From UHGV virus genome UHGV-0200858: a stretch of 36,291 bases of DNA. One strand, 5' to 3'. The translations under genes were made by a program, and so were the position numbers. The notes beneath the pieces are model-generated. The model was given only the letters and a program-made list of their open reading frames with translations. It made no database searches and was not told the DNA's origin. Below are positions 1,240 to 36,291 of this stretch, piece by piece. Source of the stretch: a virus. The first letter of the stretch is position 1; each line of letters opens with the position of its first letter.

Positions 1240-1275
1240 GCCCCTATCGTTATAATACGCGGTAGGGGCTTTTTT
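1240..1275 (+). terminator. rho-independent terminator (approx)
   Basis: GCCCCTATCG ... CGGTAGGGGC stem followed by a T-run, after the 978..1223 gene. Confidence 0.6.
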
Positions 1276-2968
1276 GTTTGGAAATGGTATGAAAACTAAA
1301 CTGTATTCGTATATTCGCTTCTCGTCTATGCGTCAGAATGATGGTTCGAGTTATGAACGACAAATCAGGATGGCTAGAGAGATTGCGGCAAAGTATGACC
1401 TTGAACTGGTAAATGATTATCAGGATCTGGGTGTATCTGCGTTTAAGGGTGCTAACTCTAAAACAGGTGCGCTATCTCGTTTCCTTGATGCAATTGGTAG
1501 ATCCGTTCCTGTTGGTAGCTGGCTATTCATTGAAAACTTGGACCGTTTATCCCGTGCCGATATTGTCAGTGCGCAGGAGTTGTTCCTTTCGATCATTCGT
1601 CGGGGGATCACTATCGTTACGGGTATGGATAACAAGATCTACTCGCTGGATACTGTTACCGCTAACCCGATGGACCTGATGTTCTCCATCCTTCTATTCA
1701 TCCGCGGTAACGAGGAAAGCCAGACTAAGCGCAATCGTACTAACTCAAGCGCATTGATTAAGATTAAAGCTCATCAAGAAAATCCACAAAATCCGGCTGT
1801 TGCAATCGAGGAAGTTGGAAAGAATATGTGGTGGACTGATACCACATCTGGTTATGTGCTTCCTCATCCGGTCTTCTTCCCTATTGTTCAGGAGGTTGTG
1901 GAATTACGGAAGAATGGACGTTCAACCGCCGAAATACTGGATCACCTTAACGAGACATATACACCACCACCAGCGGTTAGTAATAAGAAACATTCAAAAT
2001 GGTCACGGGCAATGGTTGAAAGATTGTTCCATACCCGCGCTTTGATTGGTATCAAGGAAGTCTCGGTAGATGGCGTTAACTATGAGTTAAACAATTATTA
2101 CCCGCGTGTTATTGATGACCCTACGTTCTATCACCTTAAGAAAAATATTGGTGCTAGAGCATGGAACTTCGGAGACAAGGAAGAAGTTAAACCGATCCCC
2201 CTGCTTAGTGGTATTGGCCTATTGAAATGTGATCATTGCGGTTGCGCTATGGTTAAAGTGAAGGGAACGAACAAACGTTCTGACCAGTATCGTTATACAT
2301 GTGATGCGACCCGTTCACGTAGACTTGATTGCGAGCATCCAAACTGGAGTTTTCGAGGTGATCAATTAGAGAAAGCTGTATTGCAATTGCTGGCTGATAA
2401 AATCTGGATTGCTGAGGATAAGGCTAACCCGGTTCCGGCGTTGAAAGTACAGATTGATGAAATATCACGCAAGATTGATAACCTGATCGCCCTTTCTGCT
2501 ATGACAGGAGCAACGAAGGAACTAGCCGATCAGATTACTGCCCTTAATAGCGAGCGTGAAACACTCTACAATCAGATTAAGATGGCAGAAGAGGAAATGT
2601 ATTCTGTAGACTCTCAAGGCTGGGAGAAGCTCGCAGAATTTGATTTAGAAGATGTTTACAATGAGGAACGAATCAAGGTTAGATTCAAGATTAAGCAAGC
2701 TCTAAAGCGGATCGGGTGTAGCAGGATTGACAGAAACAAAAACTTGTTTGTACTGGAATACATCGATGGAAAGACCCAGAGAGTTGTAATAGAAAATTCA
2801 AGAGGAACGAGGAAAGGACAAATATTTGTCGATTTGAAGACTATCAATGATAGGCAGATTCTGGAAAGTAACGGGCTTGTTTTGCATCCATGTTTAGACA
2901 TGCTGACAGATAAAGACTGGAAACCAGAAGAGGAAATACCAGGTCCATTACAGGAATTTGGAATTTAA
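1274..2968 (+). CDS. large serine recombinase (resolvase/invertase N-terminal catalytic domain + recombinase domain + zinc ribbon + coiled coil)
   Basis: N-terminal YSYIRFSSMRQ...R motif typical of serine recombinase catalytic domain; central Cys cluster CDHCGC...C...C (zinc ribbon); C-terminal coiled coil; 564 aa is typical of the large serine recombinase family. Track start is a TTG; first ATG is 15 nt downstream (about 1289). Confidence 0.85.
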   Translation: MFGNGMKTKLYSYIRFSSMRQNDGSSYERQIRMAREIAAKYDLELVNDYQDLGVSAFKGANSKTGALSRFLDAIGRSVPVGSWLFIENLDRLSRADIVSAQELFLSIIRRGITIVTGMDNKIYSLDTVTANPMDLMFSILLFIRGNEESQTKRNRTNSSALIKIKAHQENPQNPAVAIEEVGKNMWWTDTTSGYVLPHPVFFPIVQEVVELRKNGRSTAEILDHLNETYTPPPAVSNKKHSKWSRAMVERLFHTRALIGIKEVSVDGVNYELNNYYPRVIDDPTFYHLKKNIGARAWNFGDKEEVKPIPLLSGIGLLKCDHCGCAMVKVKGTNKRSDQYRYTCDATRSRRLDCEHPNWSFRGDQLEKAVLQLLADKIWIAEDKANPVPALKVQIDEISRKIDNLIALSAMTGATKELADQITALNSERETLYNQIKMAEEEMYSVDSQGWEKLAEFDLEDVYNEERIKVRFKIKQALKRIGCSRIDRNKNLFVLEYIDGKTQRVVIENSRGTRKGQIFVDLKTINDRQILESNGLVLHPCLDMLTDKDWKPEEEIPGPLQEFGI

Positions 2969-3041: not shown

Positions 3042-4226
3042 TTAGGCAGCGTCTAAAGGGCTTAAATCAAGTTCTAGGTCTTCCGGTTCCAAATCAGCTA
3101 ACTGTGCATTCATCCACTTAGCTAAATCTTCATCGGTTACGACAAAATCCGGTTTTTCTTCCCATTCATTAAGATACATCGGACGATCTGGATTTGCTGC
3201 GATATATTCATTAATGAAGTTTAATGCTTTCTTGAGAGTTTTAATCGGGCGTGTTTCCGTCCATCCATCCGGTACATCATGTTTTGAGGCAGTCTTACCC
3301 TTAACATGAATCTTTAACCCTTTCTCTAAGTCGATTGCTTGCCATCCCTTTTCAAACAGATGATTGAATATCAATTCATGTTTGTATGTGGATAATTTGG
3401 CTTGTTGTTGCATTCTCTTTTTAGAGTTGGAGGCGAAACCGATTTTAATAAATTCATCTCCTAATTTCTGAATATAGAGATAAGTCGGACGTGTCTTGTC
3501 AATTCTTCTTAGATTATATTCACCTGTTTCTAATGAACGTTGGTTTGAAAGGCAATCTGGACAAATCAGGATTCCACGGTCGCAAGGTTCACGGGTAGTT
3601 AAATCCCAATCCCCATGATGCGGACAATTACAGCGCAAGAGTGTCTCTCTTACTCCCTTCTCTTCTGACAACCAACAAACGAAGGTGTATCCGAATTCTT
3701 TACACAATTCCTTAATCTGTGCTTCTCTCTTAGCTCTCAATTCAGTGAGCGTATTACATCCGTTTCTACGAGCCAGATTGCTCTCTTTGGTGCAGCATGA
3801 ACAGTTTAAATTTCTACGGAATGCCAGATTAAGAGGGATAGTGAATTCTTCGTTGTGATTCAAGCAGAGAAATTTTGCTTTGGTTCCTTTGACGTGATTG
3901 TATTCACCATCCCAACCTAAAAACTGTTTCCCTTCCTGTTTCCCTCGTTCGGTTAGCTGGATTTTATATCCTTCCTCATTCCTTTTAAGGCTTCCCCCAT
4001 TGATTTGATTTAACTGTTTCAGTGCATGAATGCTGGAAAGTCCGGTAGGTTGATATGACACCTGAAAACGGGCTTCTACTCCTGATACATACGGTAAAAC
4101 AAAACCATCGAAGGTTAATCCGTGTTTCTCACACTGTTTAATGATTCTGGCTTGCACTTCTTCCGGTGTCTTCTGGTTTGGGTGAGTCTTAACAAAAACA
4201 ATCTCGTTTGCAAATGCTAGTTTCAT
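3042..4226 (-). CDS. GIY-YIG-like (T5orf172-type) domain protein with N-terminal Cys/His zinc-ribbon-like repeats; putative homing-endonuclease-like nuclease
   Basis: C-terminal half contains YLYIQKLGDEFIKIGFASNSKKR...E motif resembling GIY-YIG/T5orf172 fold; upstream CxxC/CxC/HH clusters (LNCSCC, RCNCPHHG, CPDC); paralogous to the 4381..4950 product. Confidence 0.55.
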   Translation of the reverse strand: MKLAFANEIVFVKTHPNQKTPEEVQARIIKQCEKHGLTFDGFVLPYVSGVEARFQVSYQPTGLSSIHALKQLNQINGGSLKRNEEGYKIQLTERGKQEGKQFLGWDGEYNHVKGTKAKFLCLNHNEEFTIPLNLAFRRNLNCSCCTKESNLARRNGCNTLTELRAKREAQIKELCKEFGYTFVCWLSEEKGVRETLLRCNCPHHGDWDLTTREPCDRGILICPDCLSNQRSLETGEYNLRRIDKTRPTYLYIQKLGDEFIKIGFASNSKKRMQQQAKLSTYKHELIFNHLFEKGWQAIDLEKGLKIHVKGKTASKHDVPDGWTETRPIKTLKKALNFINEYIAANPDRPMYLNEWEEKPDFVVTDEDLAKWMNAQLADLEPEDLELDLSPLDAA

Positions 4227-4279
4227 AGTAGTTTCCTCAAAAATTATAAGTTCACTACTATTTATTGAAGAGAATTATC

Positions 4280-4310
4280 TCACTATTGCATCCTCACTAA
4301 CTTTGATATA
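4280..4310 (+). promoter_or_regulatory. sigma70-like promoter candidate for the 4381.. operon (approx)
   Basis: TTGCAT - about 17 nt - TATAAT upstream of the 4381 start, in the divergent intergenic region. Confidence 0.35.
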
Positions 4311-4380
4311 TAATCCGCGACCCTAAAGTTACAAACCAACCATATTGAGGGTTTTGCCTATAAGTTAAAGTGAGGTCTAT

Positions 4381-4950
4381 ATGATTCCAGTAATGGCTAA
4401 AGATATTGTTTTTACTCCTAAATCATCCCGTGCTGTAACTCCACCAGCATTAGAACAACGCATTCTTACTCACATCAAAGATAATGACTTACCGTTAGTC
4501 TTTCATGGCTTTCTGGGTGAGTTTAAAGGGCTTCACACGAGAATTGCTCTTACATGTACTCGCTGCGGTGATAGAGCCGACAAATCAGCTACTAACCTGC
4601 TTAATGAAGGCAAACGCTGTGTATGTTTCAAGAGTGATTATTTTCAATATAAAGCGGGTGTACCATATCTCTATGTGATGCAATCCGGCGATATTGGTAA
4701 ATTTGGTGTAACAAAATCGATTATCAAACGTAGGGTTAATCTGGGCTTACGTAATCCCGGTCATAACTTTGATATTGTCTATGCTCGTGAAATGCCATCA
4801 ATGAAACATGCGCTAGCCACTGAGCGAACAATAAAGAGAATGTTGGATGTGGGTATAGGCGGGATTGAATACGGCAAAACTGAAACATTCCACTACTGCA
4901 ATAAATCACTAAACAATATAAAGAATATTGCAAGTGTGGAGTGGAACTAA
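4381..4950 (+). CDS. GIY-YIG-like (T5orf172-type) domain protein with zinc ribbon (189 aa)
   Basis: CTRCG...CVC Cys cluster followed by YLYVMQSGDIGKFGVTKS...RRVNL...E motif; stop overlaps the start of the downstream helicase gene (TAATG). Confidence 0.55.
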   Translation: MIPVMAKDIVFTPKSSRAVTPPALEQRILTHIKDNDLPLVFHGFLGEFKGLHTRIALTCTRCGDRADKSATNLLNEGKRCVCFKSDYFQYKAGVPYLYVMQSGDIGKFGVTKSIIKRRVNLGLRNPGHNFDIVYAREMPSMKHALATERTIKRMLDVGIGGIEYGKTETFHYCNKSLNNIKNIASVEWN

Positions 4951-6440
4951 TGCAAGATATTAACATTCATTTTCAAGATTACAGTTTCGTTAAGGTTGAA
5001 TGCTCTCCTTCTATCGGAATGGAATTAAGAGATTATTTCTCGTTTGAGGTTGAAGGGGCTAGATTTAGCCCCCGCTACAAATATTCCGGCTGGGATGGAA
5101 AGATAAGACTGTTTACGCATGAGAACACCTTACCAATCGGATTATTGAAAACATTGGGTATCTTCGCTAAAAACATGGGCTATAGCGTATGGGTAGACCC
5201 CAGATTGCTTGAGAAGGAAGATGTAACCAAAGAATCAATTGATTCATGGATTGACTCTTTAGAAGTGTATTCCGGTAGCAATAAAATCAATCCTTACTGG
5301 TATCAAAGAGAGGCAGTATTTCAGGGTATCCATAATCGCCGTAGAATGCTGGTTCTTCCTACCAGTGCCGGAAAGTCATTGATTGCTTGTATGCTGTCTC
5401 GTTGGTACTTAGAGAACTACACCGGAAAGATTCTAATCATTGTCCCGACTACATCGCTGGTGGTTCAAATGAGGGATGATTTTGTCGATTATAGGCTATT
5501 CCCTTATGAAGCAATCCATACAATGATGAGTGGTAGCGGGAAACATCCGGGAGACAGGTTAATCACTGTTTCAACATGGCAATCAGCTTGCAAGATGCCT
5601 CCTGAATGGTTCCGACAATATGGAATGTTGATAGTTGATGAATCGCATCGTGCCAGCGCAAAGAATATCACCAATATCATCAACGGAATGAATCATTGTC
5701 AGTTTAAAATCGGTATGACTGGTTCCCCGAAAGAATCAAAGTGCCATTTAATGCAATATGTCGGGTTGTTCGGTGATATTCAGAAGATAGTAGCAATCAA
5801 GCAATTGATGGATGACGGACAAGTTACCCAGCTTAAAATTAATGCTCTCTTCCTTAAGTACAAAGATGAAGAATGTAAAGCAATGCGGGGCAAAGATTAT
5901 CAGGAAGAGATTAAATTCATCAATGCTCATAAGGTAAGGAATAAACTGGCTTGTAATTTGGCCTTAAAACTCGCCAGGAAGCAAGAAAACGTATTTTTGA
6001 TGTTCCGGTACTCTAAGCATGGAAAAATGCTTTATAATGCGTTACAGCGCGTTTACGATAAGGTTTATTACGTTTCCAGTGAGATTACCACCGCCGAACG
6101 CGATGCCTTAAAGAAAATGGCTGAAAATGAGAAAGGATTGATTGTAGTTGCCTCCTATGGTGTTTTCTCTACTGGCGTTTCAATTAAGAATCTTCATCAT
6201 GTCATTTTCGGTCATCCAGTGAAGGAATCAACCATTGTCCGGCAATCAATAGGACGTGCTCTTAGGAAACATGGTAGTAAAGCAATTGCGTATGTGTGGG
6301 ATTTGATAGATGTGATTTGTTCGAAAGACAAGAAAGGAAAATATACACGCAAGAATTATGCTTTAACTCATGGCCTCCAGAGAATCAATACTTACATATC
6401 AGATCGCTTCGAATATGTAACGAAAACAATCGAGATTTAA
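4941..6440 (+). CDS. uvsW: SF2 DExH-box helicase, UvsW-like
   Basis: Walker A LPTSAGKS, DExH box IVDESH, motifs ILIIVPTT, VYYVSSE, IVVASYGVFSTG, QSIGRALRKHGSK; overall layout and several motifs recall T4 UvsW (from memory, not searched). Track start is GTG; likely ATG start at about 4950 overlapping upstream stop. Confidence 0.8.
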   Translation: MELMQDINIHFQDYSFVKVECSPSIGMELRDYFSFEVEGARFSPRYKYSGWDGKIRLFTHENTLPIGLLKTLGIFAKNMGYSVWVDPRLLEKEDVTKESIDSWIDSLEVYSGSNKINPYWYQREAVFQGIHNRRRMLVLPTSAGKSLIACMLSRWYLENYTGKILIIVPTTSLVVQMRDDFVDYRLFPYEAIHTMMSGSGKHPGDRLITVSTWQSACKMPPEWFRQYGMLIVDESHRASAKNITNIINGMNHCQFKIGMTGSPKESKCHLMQYVGLFGDIQKIVAIKQLMDDGQVTQLKINALFLKYKDEECKAMRGKDYQEEIKFINAHKVRNKLACNLALKLARKQENVFLMFRYSKHGKMLYNALQRVYDKVYYVSSEITTAERDALKKMAENEKGLIVVASYGVFSTGVSIKNLHHVIFGHPVKESTIVRQSIGRALRKHGSKAIAYVWDLIDVICSKDKKGKYTRKNYALTHGLQRINTYISDRFEYVTKTIEI

Positions 6441-27364: not shown

Positions 27365-29269
27365 TTAGAACGATGTTACCCAGCTACGGCCTCTATTTGG
27401 GCGTCTGGCGATGTTTTTACGTTGTGGTCGTGTGATTGGCTTATTTTCTTCGATTTGCTCGTCAGATTGCGATTTAGGAGCTTTTACGGGTTCTTCGACA
27501 ACACGGTTTAAGCTGTCTTTCATTGCGATGAGTTTATCCCATGACATTTTTGAAAGGACGTAGCGAGAAGCCGCTGTAGCATACACGGCGCAGTCGAGCG
27601 CCTCGTTCCTAACGCCTGGGTTCTTTACCCATCTCACGCCAGTAGTAGTACGCTTGACAGATTCACTTAAAAGCTGATCGAGATAATCATCAGGAACGGT
27701 GTCTGATATTTCTAAGCCAATATGAGGATTATCTTTCAGGTTCCTAGCCAACATTTCACGAAATGCAGTTTTACCCACATTAACACCCAACATAAGCAAT
27801 TCATGACCACCTGTGCGGGTAGGTTTAACCGGAATGATCGGAGCGTTACCAGCAGAACTACCTTTGATAGCGTGTAAGTTCTTCCACTTGCCGCAAATAC
27901 GGTATCCAGCTTGAGTGAATCGACCGTTCGATGTATCAAGGAAGCTGGCGAGCATAGGAACACGATCACCCGATACAGTAGTAAATCTGGTTTTATGGAA
28001 GTTGATTAATCTATCCCATACAGGGGATTCATATCGTTCACAGTTATGATCGTAAAAGCTGCGGTGATCCAGAATATAAATCTTATCCTTTGCCACGCCC
28101 ATGATTGTAGTTTCTGCGCGATCTAATTGCTGGTCAGTACCCGCACACAAGAAAATCACGTCATCAGGGATATTCTCGATAGAAACATCTGTTTTGAGTT
28201 GTTCCAGTTCATTTGCTTCTACTGCCGTGTCCTGATCGTCGTATACCTTGCCTAACACGGTGTTATAAAATGATTGTAAATCAAAGGATTGCCACGCATG
28301 ACTAAAATCAACCACACAAGCGCGGATCGTGCTGAAAGGTGAATACAGACGGCTGATCCAGAATCCTGCTACTTCACTTTCACGGGTTGCTCTCCACTCG
28401 CCTTGTGCTACTGCCCTGATCCGCTCTCCTTCTGTCCATGCGTTCTTACAGTGGGGGCAAATATAACGAGCGGTATCAGGATCGGGTAAGTTCTTACCAT
28501 CGATGTTACGCCATTCAAATTGAACGTTTTCCCACTCGATCACCTGGTGTCTACCGCAATGAGGACACGGAACAAAAAACATACGCATATCGCTTGATAA
28601 CCATTGCTGGTTAATGCTTCCCAGCTTACTGGTCGGGGTACTGGATACGACTAATCGACCTTCATCGCCAAAGGTAGTTAAACGGTTAGCAGCCAGTGCC
28701 ACCGGATCACCTTCTTCTGAGGCTGTAGCAGCATCGATTTCGTCAAGCAATCCAACCTTTGCGGTCTTACCACGTAGGGTTGATGGACTGGTAAGCGATA
28801 CCATGTACAGGAAGTGATTCGTTTTTAGCTGTAGCTGGTTATTGTTGTTAACCGCATTGCGATCATTCTTGTCTGTAACCACGTCTTTTAATGCATCACA
28901 TGCTTCGATAGACGGTCGGATCTTACCAGCGAGATATTGAGACATTTCTTTAGCGGTTGATTGTCCGATAATCATATTGCATGGATCGTTAGCCATCTGG
29001 TTAAACAGGATGCCGTTCAGGATGGTAGTCTTTCCGATCTGCGCACTGGTCATCAGAACATACTTTTTCTTGTTCTCAAGGAAAGGAGCATCAATCATGC
29101 CTTTCTGGAATGACAGCAATTTAACTTTATCCCCAGCTTGAGGACCATCTACCAGCACCATATTCGCTTCGCACCATTCCGATGGAAGGAGTTTAGGCGG
29201 TGGCGTAATATATTTTGCGGCATTTCTAAGAATTCTTTTTAGTTTTGTTTTGTTCGAAATTAGTTTCAT
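27365..29269 (-). CDS. terL: terminase large subunit (634 aa)
   Basis: Size, position upstream of portal, N-terminal ATPase-like region (Walker A-like MTSAQIGKT, Walker B-like VGLLDEID) and C-terminal nuclease-like region with conserved acidic residues. Confidence 0.8.
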
Positions 29270-29356: not shown

Positions 29357-29959
29357 ATGCTAATTAACCAACAACAAAGGGATGAATTAGATTTAGCCTT
29401 ATCTTGTACCGATCATGAATATCGTTTGCCAGTCAAGCATAAGCATTTAAAAACCGACTACACAACATCCGGTTTTAGCCGTGAGGAAGCGAAAGAGATT
29501 TTAATAGAGTTTTACCGCGATAATGGTTATACAGACGTTCACAACTTCTTTAAGAAGCATAGAACATCACATACAGAGTTTCGGAGAGTCCGAGATTGGT
29601 TTGATTTTGATATCAAGCGGTTTTACAGGATTGATGACGGTCCGGTCTATCGGTTGCAATGGAAGCCGATCCGAGAAGTGTTGAAACAGAAGAGATTGAA
29701 TCACGCTGTTACACGCTATCGTAACGAGGCATTCAAGAAAGGCTATGGTGATACAAGGGAATTGTTTGTAGAACTCGCTAACGTGCGTTATAGCCACTAT
29801 TACAACGATCCTAAAGGATTCTTCGAAGTGCTTCGCAAGGTTGATATTAGTCGGGGTACATACTATTCACGGTTGAAGAAGTACGGGATTAAGGCAGAGT
29901 TCTTCATGACCGTTGACGACTCACCGATGTTCAAGATAAAATGTAAGTCCTCTAAATAA
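29357..29959 (+). CDS. hypothetical protein with C-terminal small HTH-like module (200 aa)
   Basis: Divergent from terminase; C-terminus GFFEVLRKVDISRGTYYSRLKKYGIKAEFF resembles the two small paralogs at 29962..30219 and 33429..33623. Confidence 0.45.
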   Translation: MLINQQQRDELDLALSCTDHEYRLPVKHKHLKTDYTTSGFSREEAKEILIEFYRDNGYTDVHNFFKKHRTSHTEFRRVRDWFDFDIKRFYRIDDGPVYRLQWKPIREVLKQKRLNHAVTRYRNEAFKKGYGDTRELFVELANVRYSHYYNDPKGFFEVLRKVDISRGTYYSRLKKYGIKAEFFMTVDDSPMFKIKCKSSK

Positions 29960-29961
29960 TA

Positions 29962-30219
29962 TTGAGAATTCACTATTGTTTGGAGGAAACTACTATGACT
30001 ACTAAAGCTACTCGCGGACGTCCTTGCCGTTTTGATCGTGAACAACTGGCAGCGATTGTAAAAGCGTACTATCAAGCACCGAAAGGTAAAGCCGAAAAAG
30101 AACAAGTATTGAGCGAACACGGTATTTCAATCGCTCAATTCTACAAATCACTCCATAAAGTTGATTTGAAATTCTTTGTTCAGGTTGACGGTGAAATGGT
30201 AGAAGCAACAGGAATTTGA
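29962..30219 (+). CDS. small HTH-like DNA-binding protein (paralog family)
   Basis: RGRPCRFDREQLAAIVKAYY ... GISIAQFYKSLHKV pattern; likely true start at internal ATG about 29995 preceded by GGAGGA; followed by terminator. Confidence 0.45.
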   Translation: MRIHYCLEETTMTTKATRGRPCRFDREQLAAIVKAYYQAPKGKAEKEQVLSEHGISIAQFYKSLHKVDLKFFVQVDGEMVEATGI

Positions 30220-31241: not shown

Positions 31242-31574
31242 TTACCAATCGATTTCTACCTGATCTTCTTCATAATAAGGAATCGCATATTCATAACGCC
31301 AGTTTTCGATGATTTCACGTTCTTCATTAGTAAGAAGGTGATTGCTAACTGGAGTCGCATTGTGATTACCAGCTTCGAATTGCTCGCGAACTTCCAGCAT
31401 TGCATGAATACCAGTTAATGACATCAGATCAAACGGAACATGCATACTACGGGAGATAGTTTCACGGGATACGCCCCAATCATTTTCTACATGGCTAGGG
31501 CTTACAGAAACGGTTTTGCCGGAGATTTTAACAGTCCAGTCATACAGGGATTTAGTGATGGTAAATTCTTTCAT
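31242..31574 (-). CDS. hypothetical protein (110 aa)
   Basis: ORF with AGAGGA SD; no recognisable motif. Confidence 0.45.
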   Translation of the reverse strand: MKEFTITKSLYDWTVKISGKTVSVSPSHVENDWGVSRETISRSMHVPFDLMSLTGIHAMLEVREQFEAGNHNATPVSNHLLTNEEREIIENWRYEYAIPYYEEDQVEIDW

Positions 31575-31649
31575 GTTACATCCTCTTTACAAATCTAGGT
31601 CAAATAGGTTCAAAGTTGTCAAGTGCGATAATCATAAAAAAGTCAGAAA

Positions 31650-31685
31650 TATTTGTCAATACCCCTTGACAAGTTGCCAAAGGGT
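31650..31685. promoter_or_regulatory. inverted-repeat operator candidate TTGTCAA-N7-TTGACAA with additional TTGACC copy (approx)
   Basis: ATATTTGTCAATACCCCTTGACAAGTTGCCAAAGGGTTGACC in the gap between two minus-strand early genes. Confidence 0.35.
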
Positions 31686-31693
31686 TGACCTCA

Positions 31694-32203
31694 TTAGAGC
31701 ATTTCTAAGCCATCGTGATAGCCGTAGAAGCCATTCTGAGAAGAGAAACAGATAGGAGCATAATCATCATCTTCGTCGTCTTCATCTTCGTCATAATCGT
31801 TTTTAGGGGCTTCCTGAGCGTCTTCTTTACCGTAGTTAAACATGGCTTCGTCAATCTCTTGAAGGGTTACGAAACTACCCAGATCTTGATCACCGGAACG
31901 GACTTCGAACGGCAGGTCATCACGAACAATAATTGCTGGTAGATTCTGGTATTTCGCACGATCTTGATCGGTGAAGCAGTTAACTACGATAGTAGGTTTC
32001 TTGTTCTTGCAAAACGAATACCAAGCACTAGAAAAGCTGGATTCATCGGAATCAAAAAGGATGTTATAACCACGTTCAACGAAGATCTTCATTAAACGGT
32101 CATTGTGAAAGCTATCTGCATCCAGACCTAACAGGATGAAAGGAGTAGTAGTCTTGTTCTTGTACATAGTTGGTAATCCTCTAAAAGAAAGTGAATCAAA
32201 CAA
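31694..32203 (-). CDS. early protein with acidic C-terminal tail (169 aa)
   Basis: First gene of the leftward unit leaving the control region; C-terminal DYDEDEDDEDDDY acidic run; N-terminal alpha/beta-like region without recognisable catalytic motif. Confidence 0.45.
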   Translation of the reverse strand: MFDSLSFRGLPTMYKNKTTTPFILLGLDADSFHNDRLMKIFVERGYNILFDSDESSFSSAWYSFCKNKKPTIVVNCFTDQDRAKYQNLPAIIVRDDLPFEVRSGDQDLGSFVTLQEIDEAMFNYGKEDAQEAPKNDYDEDEDDEDDDYAPICFSSQNGFYGYHDGLEML

Positions 32204-32753
32204 ATTACACTAGTATTTATAACGAGAATTTTTTATCTATTTGGAAGTGATTGGTATTCAGTCTGGCTAAAGCCATCCTTCATGTACTAGAACAAGAATT
32301 ATACAAAACAAATTTTCTTCTATAATAATATTATATAATAGTTCTTCGTTTTGATTAAATGATCATCAAACCAGTATTGACGCTCTCCAGAGCGTCTGCG
32401 AAGCAATCTATTACCTTCTAGTATTATCAAAGTGATTCTAACTACCTTTCTAGTAACCAGTTAGTAACCACCTAGTATTAAATCCCTTTCTAAGAAAATC
32501 CTTTCAAAAGTGAGTGAACGCCGTAGGCGTGAACGTGAGCGAAGCGAACTATCCAATCCCTTTCGAATCCTGCTTGCAGGTCTTAGAAGGTGTTGGTGGG
32601 CGCTACGCGCACGGCTACGCCGTATTCTTTTTGTGAGATCTTTCTTGAACGCTAGTGAGAGAAAGCGAACAAAAAGGAGAACGTTAGTTCGAGTTTTATA
32701 TTCTATGGTCTGTGTGGTCAAATGCTTTTGCAAATCATACACTTACGTGATTA

Positions 32754-32878
32754 AAGTGTAGGGTTAGTGTAGGTGTGTAGGTTTCATAGTGTAGGTTTGG
32801 ACATGTTCTAGTGTAGGTTTACTGGCTAGTGTAGTGTAGGCCAATCCCTTTCATGTGTAGGTTTGTAGTGTAGGTTTT
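32754..32878 (+). repeat. direct-repeat (iteron-like) array, about 8 copies of GTGTAGG(T)TT
   Basis: Read directly: AGTGTAGGGTT, AGTGTAGGTG, TGTGTAGGTTT, AGTGTAGGTTT, AGTGTAGGTTT, AGTGTAGTGTAGG, TGTGTAGGTTT, AGTGTAGGTTT, all same orientation, spacing 10-20 bp, in non-coding AT-rich region. Confidence 0.8.
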
Positions 32879-32896
32879 TCATCAAAAATTTTGATA
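32878..32896. promoter_or_regulatory. near-palindromic site ATCAAAAATTTTGAT (operator candidate, copy 1)
   Basis: CATCAAAAATTTTGATAAAAA immediately after the iteron array; dyad symmetric. Confidence 0.4.
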
Positions 32897-32959
32897 AAAA
32901 ATTCTTGTATATTATTTAACCAAAAAATCATCAAAAAATAGCTGTAAGTTAATGATTTA

Positions 32960-32993
32960 AAAGGAATTGTCAAAAGGTCACCGTGCTATAATA
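32960..32993 (+). promoter_or_regulatory. extended -10 promoter candidate (TGcTATAAT) (approx)
   Basis: GGAATTGTCAAAAGGTCACCGTGCTATAATAGG: TGnTATAAT extended -10 with upstream TTGTCA-like element. Confidence 0.45.
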
Positions 32994-33428: not shown

Positions 33429-33623
33429 TTGAGGATTCTACTTATGGCTAGACCTGTTAAATTTACCCGTGAAATGATTGTTGATATTGCTAAACGCTTT
33501 TATGGTGACACTGAACGAGGCGGTGAGAACTTCTTTAAGAAGGAAGGAATTGATAGAAGCGGATTCTACAAACTAATGAAGAAATACGAGATTCAAGTAA
33601 AGATTAACGTTCAAGTTTGTTAA
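33429..33623 (+). CDS. small HTH-like DNA-binding protein (64 aa), paralog of 29962..30219
   Basis: ARPVKFTREMIVDIAKRFY ... GIDRSGFYKLMKKYEIQV pattern shared with the other two small modules; AGGA SD. Confidence 0.45.
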   Translation: MRILLMARPVKFTREMIVDIAKRFYGDTERGGENFFKKEGIDRSGFYKLMKKYEIQVKINVQVC

Positions 33624-33741: not shown

Positions 33742-34773
33742 ATGAAAAATTCTAAGCGCATCACCTTCAACCTGTTCATCAAAGCAAACGGCAAACTGAA
33801 CATTACTGTCATGGAAGGTAAAGCAAGCAAACAAGACAAATCCTTTGAAGTAGTATCCGGTAAGACTCTGACCGAAATGCGTCAGAATGCTGGCATCAAA
33901 GACGGTGCTGAATGGCAGATCACTAACCGTTTCGACAAACGTCACGTTAAACCTACACTGGTAGAAGGTGAATCCGTTTATTGCTTCGCTCGTGCTGTTA
34001 AAGCTGATGAGACTTACTATCTCGCTGTTGTTAAAACTGCTTCCGGCTTCCGTGCTGTAATGCACCACAAGAGCAAGCGTAACGAATACGGTGTAGAGAC
34101 CCAGGAAGTTGCAAAACGCTTCCGTACTGTTGCTACTGAATCCACTGTAAAAGATGTTTCTGGTACTGTTAACACCGCTAAAGGTGGTTCTTTCTACAAC
34201 CACGCATTACAGGTTACTTCCTCCTTCTTCTGCAAAAAAGAAGCTGTGAAAGAAGTTGCTCCGGTAGTAGTTGAAGAAGTTAAAGAAGAAGTTGCAGTGG
34301 TTGAATCTTCCGAAGTTGAAGCACTGAAAGCACGAATCGCTGAACTGGAAGCTGAAATGACAGCAGTTAAAGCAGAAAACGCATCTCTGAAAGCAGAACT
34401 GGCAGCACAGGAAACTACTTTCGAAGTAGCAGCGGTTGAAGTTGAAGCAGTTGAAGAAAAATCCATTGATGAAGAACTGGAAGAACTCCTTAACTATCGC
34501 TGGGGTAACGGTGAAGTAGAAGAAGAACAGGAAAACGAGAAAGAAGCTGATCCGGTAGTAGTTCCGGTTGAAGTTGAAGCAGAATCCGCACCAGTTACTA
34601 ACTTTGAATCCCTGCGCAATAACTTTATGGCTAAATTCAAAACCACTTGGGAAGATACCGAAGAAGAACAAGAAGAGATTGAAGTAAACGAAGACGAGAT
34701 CCGCGAAGCACAGATGGCACTGCATGACGCTATCTATGACACCAACTACAGCGCCTACGCATACGCAGCTTAA
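33742..34773 (+). CDS. highly acidic early protein with N-terminal globular domain and C-terminal E/V/A-rich coiled coil (343 aa)
   Basis: Strong SD (AGGAG), codon usage strongly biased to major E. coli-type codons (CTG, AAA, GAA, GTT, CGT), C-terminal half dominated by E/A/V repeats (EVEAVEEK, VVPVEVEAE); candidate host-takeover/anti-defence protein. Confidence 0.55.
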   Translation: MKNSKRITFNLFIKANGKLNITVMEGKASKQDKSFEVVSGKTLTEMRQNAGIKDGAEWQITNRFDKRHVKPTLVEGESVYCFARAVKADETYYLAVVKTASGFRAVMHHKSKRNEYGVETQEVAKRFRTVATESTVKDVSGTVNTAKGGSFYNHALQVTSSFFCKKEAVKEVAPVVVEEVKEEVAVVESSEVEALKARIAELEAEMTAVKAENASLKAELAAQETTFEVAAVEVEAVEEKSIDEELEELLNYRWGNGEVEEEQENEKEADPVVVPVEVEAESAPVTNFESLRNNFMAKFKTTWEDTEEEQEEIEVNEDEIREAQMALHDAIYDTNYSAYAYAA

Positions 34774-35730: not shown

Positions 35731-36291
35731 TTAGGACACATCGAATTCATCATCTTCTTCGGATTCTTCTTGTTCTTCCGGTTCATCCATTAACGGTAAT
35801 TCTTCTTCGTCCTCGTCTTCACCTAATTCTGCATTTTCGAACATATCCCCTACTTCATTTAAACGACGCTCGATGATCTCCCTTAGCTTATTCTTCAACG
35901 TTTTCTGATCGGTTGCAGATTCGAGAATTTCTAAAGCATCGATTGTGGCGATCTGCAAAATAGTCTGCTTCACTTTCCCGCAGTATTCCGCTAGTTCCTG
36001 TTCTACATACCCTACTGGAATAAGTTGGTTCATCGCTTCCTGGTTCTCGCGTTCGGCAGCATCTGCTAAAGCACGTTCACGGCGTAATTTCTCGACATCG
36101 ATTTGTTCCTTAATAGAAGTTTCTTTGAGCGGGTTAATGATATTTTTCAAGACCCATTCTGTACCCTCTTTTGCTGGTACGCGTCGTGTATTGGTATTAA
36201 ATGGCATTCCTCGTTGCTGCCATTTCTTAGCTGCGTTGATTGTATAGCCGTATAAGCGGGAAATTTCTGTAAGGGTTAATTCTTCTTTCAT
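35731..36291 (-). CDS. Nu1-like winged-HTH DNA-binding protein, putative terminase small subunit (186 aa)
   Basis: N-terminal LTLTEISRLYGYTINAAKKWQQRGMP resembles the lambda Nu1 HTH (QNWQEQGMP), followed by EKLRRE coiled coil and acidic C-terminus; the window ends exactly at the start codon. Confidence 0.5.
   Translation of the reverse strand: MKEELTLTEISRLYGYTINAAKKWQQRGMPFNTNTRRVPAKEGTEWVLKNIINPLKETSIKEQIDVEKLRRERALADAAERENQEAMNQLIPVGYVEQELAEYCGKVKQTILQIATIDALEILESATDQKTLKNKLREIIERRLNEVGDMFENAELGEDEDEEELPLMDEPEEQEESEEDDEFDVS

Follow-up and report, generated by a model that had tools for sequence, protein, structure and literature searches.

A Conserved Gene of an Escherichia coli Prophage Lineage Encodes a Putative Interaction Protein with an Acidic Linker and a Constrained C-Terminal Peptide

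Introduction

What could be the role of a strongly acidic protein whose gene lies beside the control region of an E. coli prophage? The stretch of DNA analyzed here (36,291 nucleotides, termed the window) is a 36-kb prophage, and one of its genes (termed the target gene) has been described in an earlier note as the first leftward early gene, whose product would carry a poly-acidic tail. We propose that the target gene encodes a non-enzymatic modular interaction factor, that is, an adaptor or decoy docking on a conserved partner via its C-terminal peptide, and the probability of this reading is put at about 0.4. Three features together suggest the docking mechanism: the head is conserved yet shows no catalytic motif, the spacer varies in length, and the C-terminal peptide is constrained and predicted to be disordered. 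We infer from the sequences that this peptide is a docking motif; which partner it binds, and with what biological consequences, is a matter of speculation.

The gene itself is real, conserved and under purifying selection: 73 homologues share 50–97% identity, all of them are from E. coli or Shigella and annotated “hypothetical protein,” and dN/dS is 0.1–0.4 for the whole gene and for the head in the codon-level comparison. At present, it is a well-defined ORFan and a candidate for interaction and toxicity screens. If the C-terminal peptide indeed docks on a conserved host hub, the hub would gain a natural ligand of a new kind, a peptide, and a function would be assigned to a core gene of a lineage whose early region is almost wholly unannotated.

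The Prophage Lineage and the Distribution of the Gene

Members of the family are found only in a single mosaic prophage lineage of E. coli and Shigella, which has a serine integrase and is carried by about 1% of the complete E. coli genomes. The target gene occurs on the chromosome in 58 of 5,426 such genomes, as a single copy in 56 and in two copies in the other 2. Note that the 38 related loci compared below had been retrieved with the target gene itself; the retrieval was therefore repeated with an independent marker, the neighboring gene p200, and all 26 IMG/VR contigs found in this way also carry the target gene, which is core to the prophage lineage. Where the junctions were seen, the insertion lies in the same place: ycdX is interrupted in FDAARGOS_1267, and a distant relative is inserted at the same ghrA-ycdX site.

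The coordinates of the features are listed in Table 1. Besides these, the window encodes an M15 endolysin and a portal protein, and its TerL and portal genes are of the lambda type, the closest TerL among the cultured phages of the collection being 44% identical. One of the two CapR-domain proteins also matches a PHROG endonuclease family. The TerS-like protein has an acidic C-terminus, and its gene is the rightmost one of the prophage, so that the whole regulatory region lies between it and TerL and the two form no co-oriented operon. Neither a polymerase, a primase, a DnaB-type helicase nor a recognizable initiator was found among 30 ORFs compared with Pfam (20 of them also with PHROGs), a scan that left out several large minus-strand ORFs between 8799 and 26787.

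No informative relative came out of the searches. The sequence cluster has hundreds of members, none of which is informatively named. When 1.84 billion representative proteins were searched with a profile HMM, only 12 matches emerged, which belong to the same family, are fragments of it, or come from one spurious repeat protein. With tblastn, the protein had no match in 50,697 records of phages and 72,556 of plasmids. Megablast with the early region (7.3 kb) found nothing in phages, a scan of the GTDB species-representative genomes with the family patterns was likewise negative, and the literature on the prophage insertion site, the motif strings and acidic-tail early proteins yielded nothing on this protein family. 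Damaged copies were occasionally observed. One locus (L039, 5809–5916) retains only the first ~36 codons, and in the case of the protein P0073 a deletion fuses an upstream ATG, that of the ATGAAGGAGG block, to the C-terminal third of the protein, giving a 102-aa product.

Table 1. Features of the window around the target gene and of the genes mentioned in the text.
Feature	Position	Strand	Description	Basis
Serine integrase	1274-2968			
Two CapR-domain proteins and UvsW-like SF2 helicase	3042-6440		adjacent genes	
TerL	27365-29269	-		
p200	29357-29959	+	200 aa	
p85	29962-30219	+		
p110	31242-31574	-	optional 110-aa protein adjacent to target	
Sigma-70 promoter for p110/Rha	31659..31631	-	TTGACA-17-TATGAT, 11/12	consensus scan
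Perfect palindrome over -35 of p110/Rha promoter	31653-31672	-	TTGTCAA-N6-TTGACAA	
ORF of the earlier note	31694..32203	-	169 aa from TTG	
Probable coding sequence of target	31694..32167	-	157 aa; ATG 32165-32167; stop TAA 31694-31696	ORF list, Shine-Dalgarno site, relatives, RefSeq
C-terminal aromatic/hydrophobic peptide	31697..31759	-	APICFSSQNGFYGYHDGLEML, residues 137-157	translation
Poly-acidic run	31760-31798	-	DYDEDEDDEDDDY, residues 124-136	translation
Acidic linker, predicted disordered	31760..31831	-	GKEDAQEAPKNDYDEDEDDEDDDY, residues 113-136	pLDDT ~35
Alpha/beta head, predicted folded	31832..32143	-	residues 9-112 (about 105 residues)	AlphaFold
Shine-Dalgarno AGAGGA	32177-32182	-	9 nt 5' of ATG	
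Promoter-like box	32208..32224	-	CGTTATAAATACTAGTG; -10-like TATAAA 32216-32221	conserved in all 38 loci
p64	33429-33623	+	basic 64-aa protein	
p343	33742-34773	+	acidic 343-aa coiled-coil protein	
TerS-like gene	35731-36291	-		phrog_57, E=7e-16

Position, Reading Frame and Expression Signals

The target gene occupies the same place in the 38 related loci, with an intergenic region of 1.2–1.7 kb that bears iteron-like repeats on its 5' side and, on its 3' side, a strong operator-flanked promoter followed by Rha. Its description as the first leftward gene holds: in the window, and likewise in 37 of the 38 related loci, no other leftward ORF lies closer to the intergenic control or ori-like region. 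An insertion upstream of it, a CapR/MUG113 gene, is present in L004/L005, and in about half of the loci the gene for p110 is inserted between the downstream promoter and Rha. It should be noted that “early” is a positional inference only.

The open reading frame of 169 codons in the earlier note does exist, but its TTG start is unlikely. The AGAGGA sequence and the ATG are kept across all the relatives in the locus comparison, including the distant loci L003 and L005, while 1-nt indels occur between them, so that the frame upstream of the ATG is not kept. In addition, the RefSeq annotation of a 97%-identical homologue is 471 nt long. On account of the Shine-Dalgarno site, the broken upstream frame and this annotation, the product is most likely the protein of 157 aa starting from the ATG at 32167, with a pI of 4.16 and a net charge of -19.

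A promoter box of its own seems to lie close to the gene. This conserved box, CGTTATAAATA(A/C)TAGTG, is located about 50 nt 5' of the ATG and has no recognizable -35 element, and the promoter consensus scan did not list it. In L005 it directly follows the canonical terminator of the upstream gene, and in L019 it is still present although the upstream hairpin module has been deleted. Since p110 and Rha have a separate strong promoter (31631–31672), they need not be co-transcribed with the target gene. Further TTGAC(A/C) half-sites lie close to that promoter. No other non-coding block of the lineage is as well conserved as the one around it, which is kept in the distant L003 and L005. Counted over the whole window, neither the ATCACTT nor the TTGACAA boxes are enriched.

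Architecture of the Protein

AlphaFold was run on two proteins, the window allele (type A) and a 55%-identical type B allele, and the outcomes agree. Both models contain a confident head with the topology b1-a1-b2-a2-b3-a3-b4-...-a4, which bears out the alpha/beta N-terminal domain of the earlier note, and the last ~40 residues are predicted to be disordered (pLDDT ~35). The C-terminal peptide is likewise modeled as disordered in isolation.

The poly-acidic run itself is hardly a product of chance: 11 of the 13 residues of DYDEDEDDEDDDY are D or E, a density attained by only 6 of 100,000 shuffled versions of the protein with the same composition, and every relative keeps 8–11 D/E in 13. However, it is not a tail, since 21 non-acidic residues follow it in the window protein and 19–22 in all the relatives. 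The acidic tract is therefore an internal linker or spacer. Its composition is kept and its length varies among the relatives, as expected of a spacer. The linker of 24 residues holds 14 of the 33 acidic residues of the protein and has a net charge of -12, compared with -5 for the head.

This distribution of charge bears on the idea that the protein is a DNA mimic of the Ocr/ArdA kind, made first after entry to block host nucleases in an anti-restriction or anti-defence role. The pI and net charge, the position of the gene as the first ORF beside the control region, and the rapid diversification of head alleles within one species (50–97% identity) are in favor of such a role, and Ocr and ArdA are likewise strongly acidic phage proteins encoded beside a control region. 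Known DNA mimics, however, display their charge on a rigid, DNA-shaped surface. In the target protein the charge is concentrated in a short tract of 13–24 residues that is predicted to be disordered, and no rigid DNA-like array of carboxylates was found over the folded body. Moreover, the protein has no homology to these mimics: no Ocr or ArdA family was matched in Pfam, where hits of the protein were considered up to E=10 and those of 22 family members up to E=5, PADLOC reported none, and the tblastn searches of the phage and plasmid collections were negative. The gene-wide dN/dS below 0.4 gives no sign of an arms race, and the most constrained element is hydrophobic and aromatic rather than acidic. 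We thus regard a DNA mimic as very unlikely.

Fold of the Head

The topology of the head resembles that of a P-loop kinase. Could the protein then be an active small-molecule or nucleotide kinase, or another NTPase, with an incidental acidic region? The Walker A motif GxxxxGK[ST] is not present between b1 and a1, where the loop reads G-LDADSFHN-D without GK[ST], and the loop at this position carries a 2-residue deletion in allele B. Because the motif is absent and the corresponding loop carries an indel, we conclude from the sequences that the head is probably not a nucleotide-binding enzyme; an active kinase was rejected, and an enzyme of this kind is hardly to be expected. Compared with the P-loop NMP-kinase fold (T4 dNMP kinase 1dek, APS kinase, and gluconate kinase), the head has only ~10% identity and lacks a lid domain as well as Walker A, and its likeness to these kinases and to their catalytically dead descendants, the GK domains of MAGUK proteins, is limited to a generic three-layer alpha/beta sandwich. 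In the models, it looks like a degenerate domain of the P-loop-kinase type. The evidence from fold comparison is weak, since Foldseek searches against the PDB and viral models found nothing under E=0.2.

Other assignments were tried and rejected. For Toprim and the CheY receiver, the candidate catalytic Asp/Glu residues are not conserved, and the acidic pocket of a receiver (DD after b1, the phospho-acceptor Asp at the end of b3, Thr/Ser, and Lys) was not found. A PIP-box was discarded as the Q and the aromatic pair are not conserved, and mimicry of the FtsZ C-terminal peptide as the alignment is limited to D-Y-x-x-I. No family was matched in Pfam, NCBIfam, PHROGs or PADLOC by searches with the protein and, individually, with 22 homologues. 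DUF4835/PorD (9 of the 22) and BRCT_3 (7 of the 22) came up below threshold and were treated as chance, and the best PHROGs match (E=0.022) is a partial stretch of 37 residues to a family of unknown function. Homology to a housekeeping enzyme, which the earlier note had named as the finding fatal to its own reading, did not appear in Pfam, PHROGs, PADLOC, NCBIfam, the PDB or the profile search of 1.84 billion proteins.

Conservation of the C-Terminal Peptide

The peptide that follows the acidic run is rich in F, Y, L and M, and is the best-conserved segment of the family. The family pattern of the C-terminus is DDDYxP[IV]xF[SY][SA]..[FY]Y..[ND][DE][GA][LF][DEQ]ML-COOH. Even the three distant members, with 31–38% identity to the window protein, keep DDDYxPVVF...Y...[GA][LF][DQ]ML, and Y136, P138, F141, M156 and L157 are invariant in them. 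It is this aromatic/hydrophobic peptide, and not the acidic tract, that looks like the functional element.

The head occurs in two diverged allele types (A and B) plus recombinants, and the tail is kept. Is this conservation due to the protein or to the DNA? The tail carries many synonymous changes, which places the conservation at the protein level; an overlapping DNA element as its cause was rejected on the same ground. In divergent pairs the tail is under purifying selection as protein, with dN/dS of 0.085 for the window vs. L025, 0.11 for the window vs. L008, and 0.087 for L003 vs. L005, two distant homologues. It should be noted that the low divergence of the tail within E. coli has in part another source, a recombination block shared with the conserved downstream promoter, since dS is 0.24 in the tail and 0.67 in the head.

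Such a peptide might also act mainly as a degradation signal, that is, as a degron of the Lon or ClpXP type that makes a regulatory protein short-lived. Its disorder and its richness in F, Y, L and M would suit this role, and the rightward acidic protein and several of its alleles have ssrA-like ends in -AA (YAYAA, DFAA, and RKAA), which suggests proteolytic control in the module. However, degrons rarely need 21 residues conserved across homologues of 31–38% identity, and the terminal DML or EML is, to our knowledge, not a ClpX or Lon C-terminal motif. A degron as the main role of the peptide is accordingly quite unlikely, and docking is the preferred reading of its conservation.

Comparison with Known Docking Tails

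In the proposed mechanism, the C-terminal peptide would fold as it binds in the groove of a partner that is itself conserved, the adjacent acidic run would steer it electrostatically towards the basic rim of the groove, and the head would then block the partner or bring a second activity or partner to it. On the other side, neither the profile of the whole family nor that of the tail alone had a significant match among the PDB sequences. The profile search of the 1.84 billion representative proteins found the tail in no other protein family, and consequently it is not demonstrably a portable motif.

Docking of this kind is the mode of action of SSB tips, clamp-binding motifs and the SspB tail, and these systems have a comparable layout. 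The E. coli SSB protein consists of a folded domain, a disordered linker and an acidic tip (...DFDDDIPF), and SSB tips need a free C-terminal carboxylate. In the target protein, a folded domain is likewise followed by a linker that is predicted to be disordered and by an acidic stretch adjoining Pro and hydrophobic/aromatic residues, and its DDDYAPICF (DDDYxP[IV]xF in the family) recalls the tip DDDIPF. By analogy, a docking role is likely for this tail, and the target gene adjoins an ori-like region. However, the target protein has no OB fold and no sequence homology to SSB, and its acidic head is unlikely to bind DNA. Its DDDYAPICF is internal, with 16 conserved residues after the Phe, and the terminus reads ...GL[DE]ML rather than ...IPF; thus the window protein, which ends in ...EML, does not have the acidic run ending in D-I-P-F with a free carboxylate that marks an SSB tip.

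The adaptor SspB, whose ClpX-binding peptide is LRVVK, resembles the target protein in its three-part build: its folded substrate-binding domain is joined by a long, flexible linker to a short C-terminal peptide, whose counterpart in the target protein is conserved and docking-like. However, there is no homology, and the peptide sequences are unrelated.

A further comparison is that with the proteins that bind the beta clamp, such as Pol II, Pol IV, Hda and MuC, which like the target protein have a short hydrophobic motif at the extreme C-terminus of a disordered region. The clamp-binding consensus is QL[SD]LF (PMC12867686; PMC9690074), and phage proteins that use the host clamp have precedent, for example MuC of phage Mu (PMC12867686). 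Clamp motifs, which include a QLxLxL type, are usually terminal. All the members of the target family end in [GA][LF][DEQ]ML-COOH, which accounts for ~2–3 of the five positions of the clamp motif and lacks its Gln and terminal Phe. In character, x-[LF]-[DEQ]-M-L matches positions 2–4 of QLDLF. Unlike the clamp motif, however, the conserved region of the target protein is much longer (21 aa). By these analogies, the beta clamp and the groove of an SSB partner are weak leads as the docking site.

Neighboring Genes and Candidate Partners

Where could the partner be found? The alleles of Rha, p64, p85, TerL and the rightward protein of 313–371 aa (p343 in the window) assort independently of the head alleles of the target gene and of one another, and the presence of p110 is likewise independent of the head alleles. 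The tail of the target protein is constant across the loci whatever the neighboring alleles. Since the tail stays constant while nearly all the neighboring phage genes swap alleles, a conserved host protein would be the most likely partner rather than a phage protein. Because the gene adjoins the iteron-bearing, A+T-rich, ori-like region, a DNA-replication or repair hub, for example the beta clamp or a protein that binds SSB tips, would be the first guess.

A more far-reaching form of this reading can be imagined. The target protein may represent a new family of hub-protein binders, in which a kinase-like dead head and a poly-acidic tether accompany a 21-residue peptide that plugs the groove of a replication or repair hub of the host (the beta clamp or the receptor of SSB tips). 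In a lineage without a recognized polymerase, primase or DnaB-type helicase of its own, such a protein would redirect the replisome of the host to the phage origin nearby, or it would shut down host replication. We consider this form unlikely.

On the other hand, the partner may be encoded by the prophage. The acidic protein would then bind and modulate the basic DNA-binding proteins of the prophage itself (the p64/p85/p200 family) or Rha, acting as an anti-repressor, anti-activator or chaperone in a lysis-lysogeny or replication switch at the iteron region. The gene abuts a 1.2 kb iteron-rich intergenic region and belongs to a regulatory cluster with Rha and small, paralogous basic proteins (pI 9.6–9.8), and its conserved promoter-like box without a -35 element suggests expression that depends on a phage factor. 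Moreover, p200 is conserved at 84–96% in all the E. coli-type loci, on a par with the tail, and this basic phage protein could equally be the partner. However, no co-variation was seen between the head alleles and those of p64, p85 or Rha, and a disordered acidic run is not specific evidence of binding to DNA-binding proteins. A phage-encoded partner is thus possible, although doubtful; if it is the true one, the target gene would offer a handle on a lysis-lysogeny or replication switch built on iterons, Rha and small basic proteins.

As for the small basic proteins, each half of p200 is related to p64, with pairwise E of 3e-5 and 6e-4, and the family of modules formed by p64 and p200 has no Pfam match. 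The two are candidates for binding the repeats. By eye p85 looks related to them, and BLASTP gives no support for this.

The earlier note had also drawn a parallel with a rightward acidic protein, by which the control region may be flanked on both sides by acidic host-interaction proteins. This parallel is weak. The first rightward gene is that of p64, which is basic (pI 9.8), and the acidic p343 comes second. The positional orthologues of p343 are mildly acidic coiled-coil proteins (pI 4.8–5.5) of several diverged allele types, and these assort independently of the target alleles. Their densest acidic stretch contains 5–7 D/E in 13 residues in the allele families other than p343 (17 of the 29 tabulated loci), and 9 are reached only in the p343 type. 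A search with p343 returned only close E. coli homologues annotated as “hypothetical.”

Some further features of these neighbors were observed. The allele types at the p343 position (the window and L007–L038) share G..RG.[ML][RH]H.S.R despite being beyond tblastn detection, and the relative in L020 has an expanded AYAYAYAYAYAA. The window protein p343 ends in ...NYSAYAYAA, which resembles the end of an ssrA tag and could be a ClpXP-type degron, and other allele types end in DFAA or RKAA. In the six frames of the window, the motif [DE]-Y-A-(IP or PI)-x-[FY] occurs twice, as DYAPICF in the tail of the target protein and as EYAIPYY at residues ~95–101 of p110, near its C-terminus; as the motif was defined after both copies had been seen, its significance is overstated.

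The Intergenic Region

The iteron-like repeat (T)AGTGTAGGTTT occurs in at least 8 copies at 32755–32960, with an irregular start-to-start spacing of 13–44 nt, and is accompanied by an A+T-rich stretch at 32880–32960. Such a combination of iterons and A+T-rich DNA is a classic layout for a replication origin or a complex operator, and may serve as either here.

Inside the A+T-rich intergenic region, there is a G+C-rich island at 32300–32640 with several stable hairpins. On the minus strand, which is that of the target gene, the hairpins have loops of the UNCG type, with UACG in the window and UUCG or UGCG in the alleles of the relatives, and on the plus strand a terminator-like hairpin with a T-run lies at 32611–32623. 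The folding z-score of the island is -2.5 on the minus and -3.4 on the plus strand, and a comparison of the island with Rfam gave no match. The island may thus correspond to a structured ncRNA, or else to a long leader, on either strand.

In addition, a small hairpin, TGGCTTTAGCCA, is located at 32264–32275 on the minus strand, 100 nt 5' of the ATG of the target gene. It is missing in L019, and across the relatives its stem has undergone compensatory changes (GGGC..GCCC, GGC..GCC, and TGGC..GCCA). The hairpin sits within the conserved block ATGAAGGAGG...GACTGAAT.
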